64,000 nt of DNA from Torpedo marmorata (taxonomy: Eukaryota), in NCBI GenBank assembly GCA_977017645.1, contig OZ360230.1, positions 35,340,001 to 35,404,000 on the forward strand, read 5' to 3'. Within the stretch, counting starts at the first letter, position 1. The number at the start of each line of letters is the position of its first letter. Below, piece by piece: positions 18,625-56,299 of the stretch. A program made the translations under genes and the position numbers. Below the pieces are notes generated by a model. It ran no database searches. It saw only the letters and a program-made list of their open reading frames with translations, and had not been told where the DNA came from.

Positions 18625-18901
18625 ATATATGTTGGACAAATATATATCTGTTGGGGGGAGGTGGGTTTACGGACACTTCTTCTGAACCTATCACCACCTT
18701 AGCGGCGAGAGCCGCTTCTCGAACAATGGAGGGGGGTAGCACTGGAAATAGAAGACCAGTGTTTTTTATAGGGGAGTTTTTCTTTTTTTTATTACTTCTG
18801 TCTTTTAATCTAGTTGAGGAGGAAATGTATATACAGCAGAACAAAAGGGAAACGCTGGTGGATTTGATTGATAGGGAATGGTTAATCTTTTTTTTTTGAT
18901 T

Positions 18902-21900
18902 ATGGGGGATTCTAGAAGTATAAATTTAGTAAGTTTTAATATAAATGGGCTTAATAATCCAATTAAAAGAAAAAGAGCTTCGGCATATATTAAAAAGTTG
19001 AAAGTAGATATAGCTTTTCTACAAGAAACTCATCTGACAGATATTGAACATCAAAAATTGAAAAGAGATTGGGTAGGACATGTTATAGCTTCTTCATTTA
19101 ATTCTAGAGCCAGAGGTGTAGCTATTTTAGTTAATAAAAAATTACCTTTTAAGATACAATCGACAGTGATTGATACGGCAGGAAGATATGTTTTGATATA
19201 TTGTCAAATTTATTCAGAATTTTGGACTCTTATGAACTTATATGTGTCAAACCCTGATGATGAACAATTTATCCAAGATGTTTCTCTACATTTATCAGAT
19301 GCTAAAGAAAATATTTTAATTGGCGGAGACTTTAATTGTTGTTTAAATCCAGTAATGGATAAAACTTCTAAAACATCTGTTAGACCTAAAATAGTTAAAA
19401 AGATTATTAACTTGATGGAGGATTTAAATTTGGTAGATATTTGGAGAAAATTGAAACCTAGAGAGAAAGATTATTCATTCTATTCATTTAGACATAATTC
19501 ATTTTCTAGGATAGATTTATTCTTATTATCTTCACAAATTCAGGATAGAATAACACAGGTATCCTACAAAGCAAGAATAATTTCAGATCATTCACCCCTA
19601 TTAATGACATGTATAATCCCGGAGAAGGAAAAAACTGTATATAATTGGAGATTTGACTCCTCTTTATTGAAAAGAAAGGATTTTTGTGAATATATGAGAA
19701 GAGAAATTCAGGAGTTTTTAAGAACAAATAATAATTCGGTTAATGATAAATTTATGATATGGGAAGCTTTGAAAGCCTATCTAAGAGGTTTAATAATAAG
19801 TTTTTCAGCAAAGATTAAAAAAGATTATTTGAAAGAAGAAGAAAAATTAGAGAGGGAGATTGAATTTATGGAAAAGGATTTACAGAGAAATAAGTCCATT
19901 TTTAAGAGAAATCGTTTAGTTAGGAGGAAATTACACTATAATTTATTACAAACTCGTAAGACTGAAAAATTAATTGAAAGAACGAAACAAAGATATTATG
20001 AATTAGGGGAAAAAGCTCATAAGGTTTTATCATGGCAATTAAAAAAAGAGCAAGTTTCTAAAACTATTAATGCTATAAGGAAGAGAAATACTGGGGAAAT
20101 AACTTATAAGCCACAAGAAATAAATGAATCTTTTAAAGATTATTATCAGAATTTATATAGATCTGAGATTGATCATGATGATATGAAGATTAATAGATTT
20201 TTATCTAAAATTACTCTACCTAAACTGAATGTTCAAAGTAAATATTCTTTGGACTTACCTTTTACGATGAAAGAAGTTACTGAGGCAATATCGACGCTGA
20301 AAAGTGGTAAATCTCCGGGTGATGATGGGTTTCCAGTAGAATTTTACAAAGAATTTAAAGATTTATTAATACCTTTATATATGGAGGTATTGAATCAAGT
20401 TACTGAAACTCATTTATTACCGAAGACATTTTTAAACGCTATTATTACGGTTATACCAAAGAAAGATAGAGATGTGTTGAAAACTGAGTCTTATAGGCCT
20501 ATTTCATTGTTAAATGTAGATTATAAAATAATGGCAAAAATTTTAGCAAATAGATTAGCTAAATATTTACCAAATCTAATACATTCAGATCAAGCTGGAT
20601 TTATTAAGAATAGATATTCGAAAGATAATATAGCTAGATTGATAAGTTTGATTAATATATATAAGAAGAAACAAGATTTACCATTGGTGGTAACATTGGA
20701 TGCAGAGAAGGCTTTTGATAGGGTAGAATGGAATTTTTTATTTAAGGTTTTGGAAAAATTTGGATTTGGAGATAATTTTATAAATTGGATTAAAACTATA
20801 TATAAAGAACCTACGGCTAAATGGCAAATATCGCAAAAATGTTTGTTATCAAGATCAACAAGACAGGGATGCCCTCTGTCACCTGCTTTGTTTGTTTTGG
20901 TAATAGAACCTTTAGCTGAAATGATTAAAGAAGATATAAATATAATGGGAATAAAAGTTGGTAGGGAAGAACATAAGATTAGCTTGTTTGCAGATGATGT
21001 ATTAATATATATGACAAAATCTGTTACATCACTTCAGCAATTGGCTACTATATTGATAGAATATGGTGAGATATCTGGATATAAAATTAATTCAGATAAA
21101 AGTGAGATTTTGGCTTTATCTCAAGGGGATTATACTAGATGTAGAGAAGTTACGGACTTTAAATGGGCTAAAGAAAGTATTAAATATTTGGGAGTTAAAG
21201 TGGACACAAAGTTGGAAAATTTGTATAAATTAAACTATACACCTTTATTTATGAAAATAAAAAAAGATTTAGAACTTTGGAATGACCTACCTATAACTTT
21301 GATGGGAAGAGTAAATTGTATTAAAATGAATGTTTTTCTAAGAATTCAATATCTTTTTCAATCCATTCCTTATGGTATTCCAAATAAATTTTTAAAGATT
21401 TAAAATTTGTTATTAGGAAATTTTTATGGAAAGGAAAGTTGGCAAGAGTAAGTATAGATAAATTAACATGGAATTATGAGATGGGAGGGTTACAACTTCC
21501 CCATTTTCAGTATTATTATAAAGTAGCTCAATTAAAGTTTATCAATGAATTTTTTGATTCAACTAAATCTTCTGCTTGGATTAATATAGAATTGAATAAT
21601 ATAGGAGAAATACATAAAGAAGAGATTATTTACAAGTGGAATTCTAAATTGTTATCAGTTAAAAAGAAAAATTCACCAATTATTAAACATTTGTTGGAAA
21701 TTTGGTCACAGGTAGATAAAGAGATAGGTCAAAAAGGATCAATTTCTTTAAATACACCAATATATCAGAATCCGCTTATACCATTTTCTATTGACAATCA
21801 ATTACTTAAAATATGGTTTCAAAAGGGAATTAAGACTGTAAAAGATTGTTTTGAAGCTGGTAGATTTATTACTTTTCAAAGGTTAAAAGAAAAATTTAAT

Positions 21901-35368: not shown

Positions 35369-36276
35369 TGTTACAGAATCAAACCAGCAACGACAGAAGA
35401 CGCAATGCAAAAGGGGTAAAATTGAAATTATTATTTATTAAACACAAGTAAACATATAATTTCACAACAATTAACCCCACTATAAACGTCTATCAACTCT
35501 ATTCTTATCTAAAAGGTGTATGTGTGTGTGTGTAAAGCCCAGACCATTACAGTCTGTGCCCAACCCTTATGTAAAAATGGAAAAACTTTCCCCAAAAACC
35601 CCAGGTCAGTCATAAAAAAACAAGTCAGTCAAAAAAGCAAAAGATACACAGTCCACAAGATTCACTCTCTAAGTTCAGGCTTCACTTCAGCTCTGGGTCT
35701 GGTAGAAGTACTTCTGAATGAACGTTGGAGAGAGACAATGACTGTTATGCTTACAAATACTTGTTTTCTTCTCTGATGACGTCCCCTTCTTGTAGGTTCA
35801 TAAGGATTGCAAGTTCCAGATCAGTATACCACTGATTTAGGCGTATGCTTGAATCTCACAGCTAGTCTCGCTGATCTCACGCCTGTTCTCCACAGAAATG
35901 GCTTTTCTCTCAGAATTTCTCTCTGAGACAGGAGGCCATGTGCTATTCTGTCAGTCTTTCTCTGACTTTTGCACACAAAACTGGATCTGGCTGTGTTCTG
36001 TAGCCTTGCAACTCACAACTGTCTGCTTTGCAGAGATCTGCCCCTGCTTTTTGCAGAAGTGAAACAAATGTATCTTCTTCAGCCTGTCTCTGTCTCTCTC
36101 TCTGGTCTCTCTCTGTCTGGGTACACCAGAAGTGTGCAACAATGTATCTTGTCTGGGTACACCAAGTAGCTGGGGAAGTTAACTCTTACAGTACCTGGCC
36201 CCAGTGTATACTCCAAAAGAATTCATCCTTCCTGCTAACCGTCCGCAGTCCAAATGGTCAGTCATGGTCCATAACA
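35369..36276 (-). repeat. 3' LTR of copy B
   Basis: Direct repeat of 40346-41253 at a constant offset of 4977; one mismatch seen (36188 versus 41165). Confidence 0.96.
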
Positions 36277-36288
36277 CCTCCCTCCCTC
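36277..36288 (-). promoter_or_regulatory. Polypurine tract
   Basis: GAGGGAGGGAGG on minus, abutting the 3' LTR. Confidence 0.88.
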
Positions 36289-36408
36289 AAAGGAAATTTT
36301 GGTCTGCAAGAACAAAATTTAGGAAAGTAAGTGAGGTGTCAGAATATAAACAAAATCTACAATGTTCATCCACAAATACAAAATATGAACTATTTTCATT
36401 GATAAAGT

Positions 36409-39400
36409 TTAACATCTAGAAAGACAATCAGCAATTACATTATCTCTCCCTTTTATATGAGTGATTACCAAATTATATTCTTGTAAAATTAGACTCCAAT
36501 TCAACAACCGTCGATTCTTATTTTTCATTTTACAAAGAAAAACCAATGGATTATGGTCAGTATACACTATGAGTGGTTTTTGAGCTGTACAGATATACAC
36601 ATCAAAATGTTGTAGAGCCAACACAAGAGCCAACAACTCTTTCTCTATAGTTGAATAATTCCTTTGATGATCATTGAACTTCTTCGAGAAGTAGGATACC
36701 GGATGGTCAATGTCCTCTTCGTTCTTCTTCTGTAACAGCACCGCACCCACAGCTTCATCGCTCGCATCCACGGCTAAAGAAAACGACTGTTCTAAATTAG
36801 GTGACTTAAGCACAGGTTGGTGGCATAACATGGCTTTCAATTTGACAAATGCTTCCTGACAACCTGTAGACCATACAAATTTCTCTTTCTTTCTAAGCAA
36901 ATTTGTGAGAGGGAGCGCAAGATCAGCAAAGATTTTACAGAACTTGCGGTAGTAGCCAATCATTCCCAGGAACCTCCTCAGAGTTTTCTTACCAGTTGGA
37001 ACAGGGAACTCGGAAATAGCGACAACCCTTTCCTCTACTGGCGCCAACTTCCCCTGTCCTACAACATAACTCAGAGAATTAACAGTTCCATGACCCTCTC
37101 TGAAACTGGTTCTATCTGTCTCCTCCTTACCCCTGTCAATAACCAGTACCTCTGGTACATTTTCAGTCCCTTTGTGTGGCACCTGATCAAAATATGGCTT
37201 AATCATATTCACATGACAGACCTGTGTGTCTCGTCTGCGATTAGGTGTTTCTATAACATAGGTGACATCATTAATTTTTGACTTAACTCTATAGGGTCCT
37301 GAAAATCTAGCCCTAAGAGGATTTGAATGGATGGGAAACAGAACTAATACGTTCTCACCAGGTTTAAAAGTTCTCATCTTCGCCTTTCGATCATACCAAA
37401 CCTTCATTCTCTGTTGAGTGGCCTTTAAATTCTCCTTTGCCATCTCACAAGCCCTATGTAACCGATCCTTAAATTTGGAAACATAATCTAACAGATTTAA
37501 ATGCACATCACGATTAATCCACTGTTCTTTTAATAATCTTAAAGGACCTCTCACCTCATGTCCGAAAACTAACTCGAATGGGCTAAAACCGAGTGAATCT
37601 TGGACAGACTCCCTCGCTGCAAATAACAACAAATGAACCCCCTCATCCCAATCCTTTTCCTTCTCACAACAATAGGTTCTAATCATGGTTTTCAAAGTCG
37701 AATGGAACCTCTCCAAGGCCCCTTGACTTTCTGGATGGTACGCAGAGGATACAATCTGTTTAACTCCTAGTCCATCAACCACTTGTTGGAAAACGCCTGA
37801 CATGAAATTACTGCCCTGATCTGATTGAATTTCTCTTGGCAAACCTACCAAGGTGAAAAACTTTACCATAGCCTTTACAATTGACTTTGCTTTTATGTTT
37901 CTCAGAGGAATGGCCTCTGGAAATCTGGTGGCTGCACACATAATTGTTAACAAATATTCATTCCCCGCTTTGGTTTTGGGCAATGGGCCAACACAGTCCA
38001 CAATTACTCTCGAGAAAGGCTCACTGAAAGCAGGGATAGGTTGCAAGGGTGCCACCGGGGGACCCTGATTAGGTTTACCCACCACCTGACAAGTGTGACA
38101 GGCCCGGCAAAAGCTTACAACCTCCCTTCTTAAACTGGGCCAATAAAACTGTTTCATTATCTTACTTATAGTTTTCTTCACCCCAAGATGACCACCTAAG
38201 GGTGTACTATGAGCCAAAGTTATTATTTCATCCCTATATACTTTAGGGATCACAACCTGCTGCACTACTGCCCATTCTTTATTGGCAGGAACATCACGTG
38301 GTCTCCAGTTTCTCATCAACACCCCATCTTTTTCATAATACCCTACTGGCACCTTTTTAATCTCCTCTTCAGAGAGAACCTTATCCCTCACGTCAGCAAG
38401 ATCCGGATCATCCTTTTGCCTTGCTATTAGCTCCTGTCGGGATAGTGACAAATCTGTGCCTTTAGGTGTCTTATCAGTGGATGGGTGTAACATAGGAGAT
38501 TGCTCAACCTTTTCCAGGTTTTCTTGATTATCAGTTTCTTTTTCTTTTTCCAAGTTATTTTCCACTGCCTTCTCTACAGTGACATTTTTCTTAGACATGG
38601 CCCTGGTTATGGCACATGCCGGATAAATATCAGAGTCTTTCTCTGACTTATCAATGACTGGCTTAGTGGTCATTCGCACTGCAGGAACTACTTTACCCTT
38701 GGCCAAGTCATTGCCTAACAACAGTGAGACTCCATCTACTGGCAACTCTGATCTCACTCCTATTATAACTGATCCTTCCACCAAGTCTGAGTTCAATACT
38801 ATTTTGTGCAAAGGAATGGACTCAACTTCACCACCAATTCCTTTTATTAAATTTATGTCACCGGTGTCAGTAGCTTCACAAAATTCCAAGACACTATCTA
38901 ACACAAGTGACTGAGCAGCTCCAGTATCTCGCAAGATTTTCACTGGCACTTGTTTTGATCCTGCCTTAACTGAAACAAAACCATCAGTCACAAAAGGTTT
39001 AAATACATCTTTAACTTGGTCAGTAAATTTATCTCCTTCCTGGGTGTTATGCATCTTCTCACTCTGAATACAAGCATTAGGTGTTGCATCCTTTTCTCTC
39101 TTCTTTTTCAACACTGGACAGCTTGCTATCATATGACCTTCCTTCCTACAGTAGTGGCAAATGGGACCTGAATTGTTTTCCCTTTTCCACTTTCCTTCAT
39201 CCCTTTCCTTAACACCACTTCCAAATTTACTTTCCACTTGCTTCTGATTATCCACCGTGACCTTTTGGAAAATTCTACCTGACGTCCACTTAGGCTTGTG
39301 TGTTAAAGCATATCCATCTGCCAACTTAGCTGAATCTCGCCAAGTTTTCACCTCCTTTTCATCTAAGTATACCTTAATATCCTCAGGAACACACCTTTTT

Positions 39401-40209
39401 ATCTCCTCGATTATTATCAATTCTCTCAATTGATTGTAATCATTGTTTACTTCCTTAGATGTGCACCACCTGTCAAAACACACAACCTTTTCATAGGCAA
39501 ACTCTGTATAAGATTGGGTTGCTGATCTTTTTAAATTTCTAAACTTCTGTCTATAAGCCTCTGGAACTAACTCATAAGCCTGGAGTATAGCCTTCTTCAC
39601 CGTTTCATAATCAGCAGCTTGTTCTGTGGTAAGAGTAGAATAAGCTTGCTGAGCTTTTCCTTTTATTACACTTTGCAACATAAGAGACCATTGGTCTTGT
39701 GGCCATTTCAATTTCACAGCCACTTTCTCAAAATGTTGGAAGTACTTATCTATTTCTGCCTCCTCAAATGGAGGAACCAACCTAACTTCTCTACTAGCCA
39801 AATACCCCTCAGCAGGATGACGAATTTGATCTTGGCGCTCTTCTTGTCTCCTCTCATTTTCCAACTTTATCTTTTCCAACTCATATTTCCTATTTTTCTC
39901 CTCGTTCTCATATCTCTTTTGTTCTCTGTCTATCTCCATGTCTAATCTCTTTTGTTCTCTGGCTGCCTCCAATTCCAATTTCTTTAATTCCAACTATATG
40001 TTTTCAGAAGGTTTACCCTTGGGAAACTGCTCTAACAATTTTTTTTCTTTTATATAGTACTTGACAATTTTTCTCCCAATCTCTGCCATTTTCATAGATG
40101 GTTTTACAGAAGCAATGCCCAACTCTGTTGCTATAGCCACTAACTGTTCCTTTTTCGCCTTTTTTAAAGTATCAGGTTCAGGTGATTCCAAAAATTGTTC
40201 TACATCCAT
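36409..40209 (-). pseudogene. Gag(SCAN-like, CCHC)-protease-integrase-RNase H polyprotein; TAG at 39994-39996 and RT core missing
   Basis: 1194-codon open frame: CHYCRKEGHMIASC, LRDTGA, HSTPLGGH..CRACHTC, VDCVGP/SDQGSNF/GALERFH, then directly GHGTV..YVVGQG, RRFLGMIGYYRKF, DASD, YSTIEKE, TDHNPL, NVIADCLSR. No YxDD motif. Confidence 0.93.
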
Positions 40210-40323
40210 TGTTGCTGGGTTTTTTTTTGTTACACACACACAAGCTTTTAATTAGCTTTACCAAAAGGAATGCCTTAAACCAAACTGGGATTCCTTCAAT
40301 TACCAAGATGGATTTTGATTCAA

Positions 40324-40342
40324 ATCCCGCAACGAGCCCCCA
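40324..40342 (-). promoter_or_regulatory. Primer-binding site, tRNA-Pro type (variant)
   Basis: TGGGGGCTCGTTGCGGGAT, 3 nt inside the 5' LTR. Confidence 0.85.
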
Positions 40343-40345
40343 ATT

Positions 40346-41253
40346 TGTTACAGAATCAAACCAGCAACGACAGAAGACGCAATGCAAAAGGGGTAAAATT
40401 GAAATTATTATTTATTAAACACAAGTAAACATATAATTTCACAACAATTAACCCCACTATAAACGTCTATCAACTCTATTCTTATCTAAAAGGTGTATGT
40501 GTGTGTGTGTAAAGCCCAGACCATTACAGTCTGTGCCCAACCCTTATGTAAAAATGGAAAAACTTTCCCCAAAAACCCCAGGTCAGTCATAAAAAAACAA
40601 GTCAGTCAAAAAAGCAAAAGATACACAGTCCACAAGATTCACTCTCTAAGTTCAGGCTTCACTTCAGCTCTGGGTCTGGTAGAAGTACTTCTGAATGAAC
40701 GTTGGAGAGAGACAATGACTGTTATGCTTACAAATACTTGTTTTCTTCTCTGATGACGTCCCCTTCTTGTAGGTTCATAAGGATTGCAAGTTCCAGATCA
40801 GTATACCACTGATTTAGGCGTATGCTTGAATCTCACAGCTAGTCTCGCTGATCTCACGCCTGTTCTCCACAGAAATGGCTTTTCTCTCAGAATTTCTCTC
40901 TGAGACAGGAGGCCATGTGCTATTCTGTCAGTCTTTCTCTGACTTTTGCACACAAAACTGGATCTGGCTGTGTTCTGTAGCCTTGCAACTCACAACTGTC
41001 TGCTTTGCAGAGATCTGCCCCTGCTTTTTGCAGAAGTGAAACAAATGTATCTTCTTCAGCCTGTCTCTGTCTCTCTCTCTGGTCTCTCTCTGTCTGGGTA
41101 CACCAGAAGTGTGCAACAATGTATCTTGTCTGGGTACACCAAGTAGCTGGGGAAGTTAACTCTTTCAGTACCTGGCCCCAGTGTATACTCCAAAAGAATT
41201 CATCCTTCCTGCTAACCGTCCGCAGTCCAAATGGTCAGTCATGGTCCATAACA
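40346..41253 (-). repeat. 5' LTR of copy B
   Basis: TGTTAC...ATAACA termini; repeat of 35369-36276. Confidence 0.96.
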
Positions 41254-51854: not shown

Positions 51855-51998
51855 ATCTAGACAGAGATGGGAATCAGACTTGGATATAATAATTAATGAA
51901 CAAAACTTGTCCGACTTATGTCGGGACAGTATGAAAAATACAATAAATGTGAGATACAGACTGGTACAATATAATTTTTTGCACCAGTTATATCTCAC

Positions 51999-52210
51999 TG
52001 ATATGCCTATCAATTAGCACTCAAGAGACTATGAGTGGGTTAACGAACCATAGGCTTTAATACACATAAAACAGACCAACAGTAGACCTGCAGATCTCTC
52101 CCGGACTGTGGGCGGAGCAGTGGCACACAGGCCTTTATTCAGGTGAGAAAAGGGGAGGGATTACCTGGACACCCAAAGGAGGGGAGAGGAGTCGCCGGGA
52201 CAGACAGCAG
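51999..52210 (-). repeat. 3' LTR, lacking its first ~32 bp
   Basis: Matches 55894-56105 with one mismatch seen, then joins the integrase C-terminus directly. Confidence 0.92.
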
Positions 52211-55200: not shown

Positions 55201-55870
55201 CGGCGGTGAGAGTAGCGTCGGTAGTGGTCGGGTCGCGGGTAGCGGCGGCAGCAATCGGGTCGCGGGCCACAGCGGCCACAATTGGATCGGTGGGGCTGGG
55301 GAACGGGGCGATCCACGCATTAGCCTGGGGGTCCCGCGTCTGCATCGCGTCGGAGTTCTGCAGCGCGGACTCCAGCGTGCGGGCCATCGCCACCCCAGAA
55401 CGGAGATCGAGGTCAGAGTGCTCCAGCAGTCGCTGGCGTACGTATACTGACCTCATCCCCATAATAAAGGTGTCCCTCTCCAGCAGATCAACATGTTGTT
55501 CTTCAGTCAGCGCTTTACAGGCGCACGCTCGCACTAGGGACTGGATGTCCCTGACAAAGTCCACTATTGACTCCCTGGCCCGCTGTTTTCGTAACGATAG
55601 TCTATACCTCACGTAGACCTCATTAACGGGGGTCACATAGATCTTTCTCAGTGCCTCCATCGCCTCGTCGTACGTCCCACATTTCCAGATGGTTGAATAC
55701 AACTGAGGGCTTACCCTAGATACTAGGACCTCTAGTTTCTGCTCGTCGCTTTCGGCCTTGACCTCCTTTGAGAACGATCGGAGGCAGCGTAGCCAGTGTT
55801 CGAATGCATGGCCAGCATCAGGAGCTAAAGGGTCGATGTCCAGTCGGTCCGGTCGGAGGGCGCCTTCCAT
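52139..55870 (-). CDS. Gag-Pol polyprotein (2x CCHC, protease, RT, RNase H, integrase), 1243 aa from the first internal ATG
   Basis: CYFCGLDKHTRKRC and CSNCGKKGHFAKAC, LFDTGS, LPFG, YLDD, SDASD, TDQRS, HDDLCH..CRVCAEC, IDFKGP/HSDRG/GQVERE; no internal stops. Confidence 0.93.
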   Translation of the reverse strand: MEGALRPDRLDIDPLAPDAGHAFEHWLRCLRSFSKEVKAESDEQKLEVLVSRVSPQLYSTIWKCGTYDEAMEALRKIYVTPVNEVYVRYRLSLRKQRARESIVDFVRDIQSLVRACACKALTEEQHVDLLERDTFIMGMRSVYVRQRLLEHSDLDLRSGVAMARTLESALQNSDAMQTRDPQANAWIAPFPSPTDPIVAAVARDPIAAAATRDPTTTDATLTAAAVNREPEKCYFCGLDKHTRKRCPARDATCSNCGKKGHFAKACRSKPRVGPSSAACERWERPSCRLALLAPTACEEWKRPSFMLALPAPPSQSRTSLLPALPAPPFCTETSSDTCNPRERPFLKTSDQDDFTPTLASITLDQNVPHQLTRSMMDILVEGHKITCLFDTGSTESFIHPDTVQRCGLTIVPVSQRVAMASGSHTTDIRGACVANIVVQGTEYWQFSLFVMNRLCAPVLLGLDFQSHLQSVTMRYDGPLPAITVANHQFLDSTPETTCGLSTLKISPPSLFANLTPDCRPVATKSRRYSAEDRAFIKTEVQRLLQEGIIEKSNSPWRAQVVVVKGAKSRMVVDYSQTINRFTLLDAYPLPRIAEMVNQIAQYRLFSTIDLKLAYHQLPIRREDCSYTAFEADGRLFQFLRLPFGVTNGVSVFQREMDRIVDHYKLKATFPYLDDITICGYDRQDHDNNLRRFLQAAEALNLTYNKEKCVFGTTRLAILGYVVENGVIGPDPERMRPLLELPLPTNPRALKRCLGFFSYYAQWVPNYADKARPLVKSIAFPLASEARKAFDLIKGDIARATMHAVDEETPFQVESDASDFALAATLNQAGRPVAFFSRTLQGPEIRHSAVEKEAQAIVEAIRHWRHYLAGKHFTLLTDQRSVAFMFNNQQRGKIKNDKIMRWRIELSTYNYDIMYRPGKLNEPSDALSRGSCASAQVDRLHALHDDLCHPGITRFFHFVKSQNLPYSLEEVRTMISSCRVCAECKPQFYRPDKAQLIKATRPFERLSIDFKGPLPSTNRNVYFLNIIDEYSRFPFAIPCPDTSAASTIKALCQVFTLFGFPNYIHSDRGSAFMSEELRQFLLTRGIATSRTTAYNPRGNGQVERENATVWKAALLALKSRGLPVSCWQDVLPEALHSIRSLLCTATNVTPHERFFSFSRRSNTGTALPAWLTSPGPVLLRNHLRSSKYEPAVQRVQLAHANPQYAYVVFPDGREDTVSIRDLLSVPATPLPSFGCPGNPSPFLT

Positions 55871-55893
55871 AATTTTTCTTATGTGTATTAAAT

Positions 55894-56137
55894 TGATATG
55901 CCTATCAATTAGCACTCAAGAGACTATGAGTGGGTTAACGAACCATAGGCTTTAATACACATAAAACAGACCAACAGTAGACCTGCAGATCTCTCCCGGA
56001 CTGTGGGCGGAGCAGTGGCACACAGGCCTTTATTCAGGTGAGAAAAGGGGAGGGATTACCTGGATACCCAAAGGAGGGGAGAGGAGTCGCCGGGACAGAC
56101 AGCAGTACATACAATACACAAACAGTGGTTTACCACA
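55894..56137 (-). repeat. 5' LTR, 244 bp
   Basis: TGTGG...TATCA on minus, with an ATTAAA poly(A)-signal candidate. Confidence 0.93.
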
Positions 56138-56299
56138 CTCACACCGCAAAAATTGAATAAATTTAAATCAGAAATATCAGATAAATGTTTTAGATGCGGC
56201 AAAGAAATAGGAACGTTTTTACATTTAACCTGGTCATGCCCCAAGGTAAAACCTTTTTGGACGGATTTAGAACAAATCATAATCATTTTTTGAAATGAA

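Follow-up and report, generated by a model that had tools for sequence, protein, structure and literature searches.

Self-priming of reverse transcription, in which the RNA of an element takes the place of a tRNA, has so far been demonstrated in a single yeast element, and predictions of it mainly concern chromoviruses and a plant copia lineage; some Gypsy families are called self-primed in Repbase entries. In Tf1 the primer consists of the first 11 bases, the RNase H cut falling between bases 11 and 12, and RNase H is able to cut such a fold into primer (PMC7175516; here and below, statements on published systems refer to the available sections of the papers cited). Tj1 of S. japonicus has been proposed to prime like Tf1 (PMC4600332), and hairpin priming has been tied to some chromoviruses (PMC3601003). 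The plant elements Tcn1 (gypsy) and TAR/Houba/Osr-1 (copia) are predicted self-primers under a rule that asks for at least 10 bp complementary to the LTR, starting 0–5 bp after the 5′ LTR (PMC6317226). The Gypsy clades of animals have been catalogued (PMC6238403, PMC8556966, PMC3670739); the term PBS does not occur in the available sections of the first two papers, nor is self-priming mentioned in those of PMC10886601. A title-level search of papers free of subscription retrieved no report of self-priming in a non-chromoviral animal Gypsy clade.

The element described here lies in a stretch of 64,000 nt, hereafter the window. It resembles Tf1 and Tf2 of S. pombe, Tj1 and the Tf1/sushi chromoviruses in having no tRNA site, in carrying an LTR-complementary site after the 5′ LTR, and in the structured U5 between the site and its complement (PMC7175516, PMC4600332). 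In contrast to Tf1, the complementary stretch of the LTR (the arm) is found in this clade 36–61 nt past the predicted transcription start and ends in a poly(A) hexamer. In agreement with the published rule for self-primers, 14 bp complementary to the LTR begin 1 bp after it in the window element (PMC6317226). Tcn1 and TAR/Houba/Osr-1, to which the same rule applies, belong to other lineages and other hosts, and the available account of them is silent on an overlap with the poly(A) signal and on a long primer (PMC6317226). The fungal GalEa copia elements likewise carry a self-complementary sequence, the Conserved Hairpin Site, in place of a tRNA site; their hairpin, however, is located downstream of the LTR, in which the authors detected no complement, whereas the partner in the window element is inside the LTR (PMC5445492). 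Self-priming is already known, and the geometry proposed for the window clade would be a variant of it.

Organization of the element

The window element is a young Gypsy LTR retrotransposon on the (-) strand, for which Pfam profiles give the domain order gag-PR-RT-RH-IN without env; the two CCHC knuckles were read off the sequence. The best relative of its protein among solved structures is Ty3 Gag-Pol (E 2e-63). Compared with a sibling, the window copy is short by 394 nt, having lost the tail of the integrase along with the PPT and the initial 32 bp of the 3′ LTR, and it is because of this deletion that the end of the gag-pol ORF extends into the 3′ LTR remnant (Table 1). Two 244-bp LTRs, a 5-bp target-site duplication and a PPT are present in all of eight siblings (8/8), in which the LTR pairs differ at 0–4 sites. 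The youth of the family is also apparent from 966 first-look candidates, 40 of which were scored and found to be 99–100% identical.

Two further elements were noticed in the window. A second young LTR element (35369–40645) has flanking repeats that are identical over at least 300 bp, and its ORF (36409–39939, -) encodes a SCAN domain followed by integrase ahead of RNase H, which we take to be the Gmr1-type domain order. Positions 18878–21403 (+) hold a LINE-type ORF with endonuclease and RT.

Table 1. Positions in the window of the features of the element and of its flanks
Feature	Position	Strand	Remarks
Target-site duplication, 5 bp, LTR-proximal copy	56138..56142	.	Identical to 51994–51998
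5′ LTR, 244 bp, TG...CA	55894..56137	-	Same start in 30/30 family copies read
AATAAAGG, predicted TATA-like box	56027..56034	-	AGTY at +32 spacing; putative function
Inr-like CAGTCC, predicted start 56002 (LTR position 136)	55996..56003	-	Suggested by spacing and fossil ends
5′ part of R, 38 nt, not paired to PBS	55965..56002	-	Predicted 5′ part of primer
LTR arm, 14 nt, ATTAAA at its end	55951..55964	-	Predicted primer 3′ end; poly(A) signal candidate
Hairpin directly 3′ of arm, closing stem GCCTAT/ATAGGC	55900..55950	-	From predicted folds; predicted to stack on arm-PBS stem
Spacer A and 14-nt primer-binding site (PBS)	55879..55893	-	Abuts terminal CA of LTR
Single gag-pol ORF, 1243 aa	52139..55870	-	Two CCHC knuckles, protease, RT, RNase H, integrase
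3′ LTR remnant, 212 bp	51999..52210	-	One difference from 5′ LTR; first 32 bp and PPT absent
3′ copy of arm	52056..52069	-	Rival primer; unpaired poly(A) signal candidate
Target-site duplication, 5 bp, second copy	51994..51998	.	Matches 56138–56142

The primer site and its complement in the LTR

Read on the element strand, the terminal CA of the LTR (at 55894) is followed by a single A at 55893 and then by TTTAATACACATAA, so that no TGG start is present, and the gag-pol ATG comes 23 nt past the end of the LTR; our re-reading of this layout agrees with that of the initial annotation. The 14-mer at 55879–55892 had also been described as exactly complementary to a stretch of the element's own LTR ending in a candidate poly(A) signal, and indeed it is the exact reverse complement of 55951–55964 across 14 nt, with ATTAAA at the end of this arm. 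In 20,000 base shuffles of the LTR an anchored 14-nt match never appeared (0/20,000), the longest shuffled match being 11 nt; the 14-bp match is beyond chance. All 14 pairs are intact in 28 of 30 copies of the window family, and the remaining two are changed in the leader.

Folding of the window leader (5′ copy) gives pair probabilities of 0.89–1.0 between arm and primer site, and the poly(A) hexamer of the 5′ copy is accordingly predicted to be masked by the arm-PBS stem. Closing pairs of the CCT/AGG type in the hairpin adjoining the arm were recognized by eye in distant families as well.

Covariation of the two arms

To follow the stem through the 6.2-Gb host genome, a pattern was used whose only fixed parts are the start of the hairpin, the end of the LTR, three T residues and the ATG. 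This layout of LTR, leader and ATG yielded 42,035 matches genome-wide, compared with 414 for the reversed pattern. The copies analyzed are from one contig and comprise 90 of the first 100 matches listed; three of the 90 (L193, L247 and L253) were removed as chance matches before counting, which leaves 87 copies, in which three pairs are fixed by the pattern itself. Stem positions were numbered from the LTR and Watson-Crick cells were counted over all 87 copies: 339/348 at positions 4–7, 420/435 at positions 8–12, 129/174 at positions 13–14 and 174/522 at positions 15–20. When the arms were dealt to other leaders (2000 shuffles), positions 8–12 gave a mean of 215/435 and a maximum of 248, and slid registers gave 90–124. 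As many as 67 of the 87 copies are accounted for by 23 distinct perfect 12-mer stems. On the gag-start tree, positions 4–12 underwent 55 changes in the arm and 52 in the leader but only 66 in pair state, of which by subtraction about 41 are two-sided, whereas positions 15–20 show 52, 67 and 107 changes, respectively, with about 12 two-sided. Compensatory changes across related families, which had been proposed as a check, are therefore found: two-sided changes keep the complementarity among the 87 copies and at 22 of 27 distant loci.

Two further properties of the stem may bear on its renewal. Among 79 distinct sequences, and as far as the predicted folds underlying these counts are correct, G-U pairs make up 7 of 1061 arm-PBS pairs (0.7%) versus 179 of 1208 pairs in the adjacent hairpin (15%). 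Moreover, positions 8–9 changed 12–16 times on the tree and their unpaired neighbors 4–17 times, i.e. equally often. Retroviral primer sites are recopied from the tRNA, and both the near-absence of G-U and the fast change at positions 8–9 fit a primer site that is recopied from its primer in each cycle. Covariation and G-U exclusion are the strong part of the case.

Of the mismatched copies, five have a second arm that is similar and can be read; in four of these the arms of the two LTRs are not identical, which fits what decay after insertion or exchange would give, and one copy mismatches both arms. Eight mismatched copies were screened for diagnostic recombinants and none was decisive, two being without a 3′ LTR in reach and one ending before the arm. 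The strand-transfer point was sought in 62 copies of four families by applying the four-gamete test to U3, R, arm, U5 and gag; incompatibility amounted to 0.14–0.53 everywhere, without localization. One locus (L302, G000:C1:763900–770000) has two LTRs with arms of different subfamilies and a primer site matching the 3′ one; it has no resolved target-site duplication, and an exchange between copies is possible.

Predicted start of transcription

In the 87-copy set an AGTY motif follows an upstream AATAAA at a distance of exactly +32 in 70 copies, and of +31 to +34 in 77. From AGTY to the start of the arm there are 36–39 nt in 57 copies and 58–61 nt in 20. The sequence and spacing of the two motifs suggest a TATA-like box and an initiator, which would place the start at 56002. 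As a poly(A) signal the upstream AATAAA (56034) is less likely, given the fixed 32-nt spacing and the absence of a conserved GU-rich tract downstream.

A splice-donor-like CAGGTGAG in antisense (window 56035–56042, +) adjoins the TATA-like box and has similar counterparts at three other loci (L042, L043 and L053); by eye, similar motifs also occur upstream of the arm in distant families. In the fold of the window element, the predicted first bases of the transcript (55996–56002) can pair with gag codons 6–8 (55843–55850), a pairing which, by eye, is not conserved in all families.

Fossil copying errors at the primer site

Some copies carry a primer site that continues as the reverse complement of R in place of the leader, and these were regarded as fossils of copying errors. 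The search gave 64 matches for the window family and 87 for two sister groups, compared with 0 for the controls. From the total of 151, 130 were read and 127 classified, 3 of the 130 being unclassifiable. In class A (32 fossils) the 5′ LTR is complete and the inverted copy only partial, mostly jumping into the internal region; class B (75 fossils) has the opposite layout, nine fossils are whole on both sides and 11 are neither.

Relative to the predicted start, 12 of the 32 class A ends fall within 3 nt, none at -12 to -4, three at +4 to +10 and four at +11 to +17; three of the 11 unclassed fossils also end at the predicted start. The binomial p of the class A pile-up is 1e-8 if 150 positions are considered, 1.5e-4 for 60, and 0.012 in the most cautious count (8/28 vs 60). 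The ends are blurred by microhomology, and in the window family the microhomology near the start, at 7.6 nt, is slightly higher than the average of 6.0 nt. Such a pile-up implies that a template ending there was copied, namely the 5′ end of an RNA continuous with the arm, and the simplest source of the class A ends is the primer itself, read through to the cap. Three of the 12 start-proximal fossils (L366, L377 and L381) jump to one target at the gag start (window 55843–55850) and may represent one lineage.

The majority of the fossils (84 of 127) continue through U3 to the LTR start, and six of these 84 extend into the PPT, two of the six for some hundreds of bases. Class B ends show no clear pile-up at the predicted cut, with 3/75 at +52 to +55. 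Plus-strand DNA that ends in the primer site and is annealed to an arm, either that of another RNA molecule or that of the strand itself, can yield all fossil classes, and for this reason the fossils back the start site better than the identity of the primer. Class B (75/127; e.g. L312) comprises copies with an inverted U5 between the arms and copies with a longer inverted piece of the LTR ahead of the internal region; template switching seems to be especially frequent at the inverted repeat.

A model of self-priming and its alternatives

Taking these observations together, we consider it highly probable that the element primes reverse transcription with its own RNA, in some geometry, in place of a tRNA. 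As to the geometry, a moderate preference is given to an arm inside R and a primer that carries the cap, is about 52 nt long and results from a cut after the poly(A) hexamer. Transcription would start at 56002, 38 nt ahead of the arm, and arm and primer site would pair with the U5 hairpin enclosed between them; in the 5′ copy, but not in the 3′ one, the poly(A) hexamer would thereby be hidden. The RNA would then be cut directly after the A run of the hexamer, the probable nuclease being the element's own RNase H by analogy with Tf1. The capped primer so formed would measure about 52 nt (about 50–75 in sister families), its last 12–14 nt being paired. Minus-strand DNA would copy U5 and jump to the 3′ end via the short stretch of overlap that lies between cut and poly(A) site, and plus-strand synthesis would recopy the primer end into the primer site, which is why both arms would change together. 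What halts plus-strand copying at 12–14 nt in normal cycles is a step for which this model offers no account. What is new is that the primer would be long, internal and linked to the poly(A) signal; the evidence for it is indirect, and we hold it to be somewhat more probable than otherwise. The likeness to Tf1-type self-priming drawn by the initial annotation stands as regards the LTR complement at the primer site, but not as regards the position of the arm, which would be inside R, 38 nt past the predicted start. From the fossils, this model makes exact predictions, namely a start at 56002 and a cut after 55951.

If it is true, self-priming arose again, in a separate animal lineage and with another geometry; the element would be freed from host tRNA and, as we infer, from silencing by tRNA fragments, and priming would be coupled to the choice of the poly(A) site. 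A self-primer also explains why annotators based on tRNAs would leave such elements without a primer site.

An alternative that we regard as unlikely, and that the initial annotation had already raised, is priming by the 3′ copy of the arm, the RNA 3′ end being trimmed or cut after the hexamer and pairing in cis or with a partner RNA; in that unlikely case the 38-nt R segment upstream of the arm would serve the first strand transfer. Covariation and G-U exclusion would be the same, R reaching 36–61 nt upstream of the arm would be accounted for, and the 6/84 LTR-start fossils that enter the PPT would be explained directly. On the other hand, folding predicts that the site is taken up in cis by the 5′ arm (probabilities 0.89–1.0), the poly(A) tail and about 20 nt would have to be removed exactly, and the pile-up at the start (12/32) would require an additional annealing to an arm that is already paired.

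We judge it quite improbable that the transcript begins at the arm and the primer consists of its first 12–14 nt only, as in plain Tf1 geometry. The sole fixed promoter-like pair sits 36–61 nt upstream of the arm, and fossil ends cluster at the upstream start and not at the arm, with the restriction that ends within about 10 nt of the arm are invisible to the pattern; yet this geometry is an already known mechanism (PMC7175516, PMC4600332) that would give the sharp 12–14-nt boundary without any further step. Slightly less probable again is a purely structural stem, serving 5′ poly(A) masking or packaging while a different primer is used. Two features would suit such a role, namely the terminal AATAAA or ATTAAA that almost every family of the host genome has in its arm, and the predicted pairing of the arm in the 5′ copy. 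The stem, however, occupies the exact position of a primer; selection for shape should tolerate G-U pairs as in the neighboring hairpin (0.7% vs 15%) and should make the stem evolve more slowly than free sites, which positions 8–9 do not, and no external primer would be able to track 23 different stems.

Priming by a host tRNA or tRNA fragment, with an incidental inverted repeat, is the usual route of LTR elements but here very improbable: in a partial tRNA set (34 genes of 10 types) the longest anchored match is 5 nt for the window leader, which has no TGG start, and 4–5 nt for the 87 leaders, and the site varies together with the element's own LTR in every family, so that no tRNA can account for the 23 different stems. 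The earlier suggestion that the element primes without tRNA is thus supported as an inference, by this comparison and by the complementarity kept in the families.

Placement and distribution of the clade

A chromodomain at the end of integrase is typical of Tf1/sushi chromoviruses, although absent in some members. The window element, unlike these, has no chromodomain, and it has two CCHC knuckles and one short ORF; in the ORF of a full-length sibling and in three relatives, no chromodomain was detected up to an E of 0.1. Judged indirectly, from a predicted start 36–61 nt upstream of the arm and from the fossil ends, the primer site does not appear to be complementary to the first bases of the transcript as in Tf1/sushi. 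For lack of a chromodomain and, indirectly, of a terminal primer, the element is not placed in Tf1/sushi in spite of its Tf1-like working. It shares its compact, env-less organization with the animal Gypsy clades Cigr-1, Mag (A/B/C), CsRn1 and MolGy, and it resembles Cigr-1 in its short single ORF and LTR of about 245 bp. The TGTGG start of the LTR resembles the CsRn1 motif tabulated in PMC3601003; motifs of the Cigr-1, Mag, CsRn1 and MolGy clades were not found in the available main texts or in the supplements searched.

The design extends beyond the window family. In the 87-copy set nearly all families of the host genome have an arm ending in AATAAA or ATTAAA, and a more distant family of the same genome has an 18-bp stem with the end AGTAAA. 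Distant relatives were represented by 63 metagenome loci, of which 27 with a gag start were tested, their families being grouped by eye. At 22 of the 27 loci, in 10 families, 11–18 perfect pairs are found although the sequences are unrelated; of the five misses, one is a copy whose stem is held to 9 bp by a mismatch, and in the other four no LTR pair could be read. The hexamer at the arm end in these 10 families is AATAAA or ATTAAA in four and GTTAAA or TTTAAA in five, and one has none. Comparison at the protein level identified named relatives from cnidarians, an echinoderm, nematodes, an insect and a spider.

Tentatively, we describe a widespread animal Gypsy lineage apart from Tf1/sushi, with more than 40,000 copies in the host genome, in which a capped leader primer of about 50–75 nt would end in the poly(A) signal, the same motif being masked at the 5′ end and working at the 3′ end, the primer site would be rewritten in each cycle, and fossils of over-copied primers would map the start. 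The clade makes up a large share of the host genome, and the first-look candidates for its gag start number about 68,000 genome-wide.
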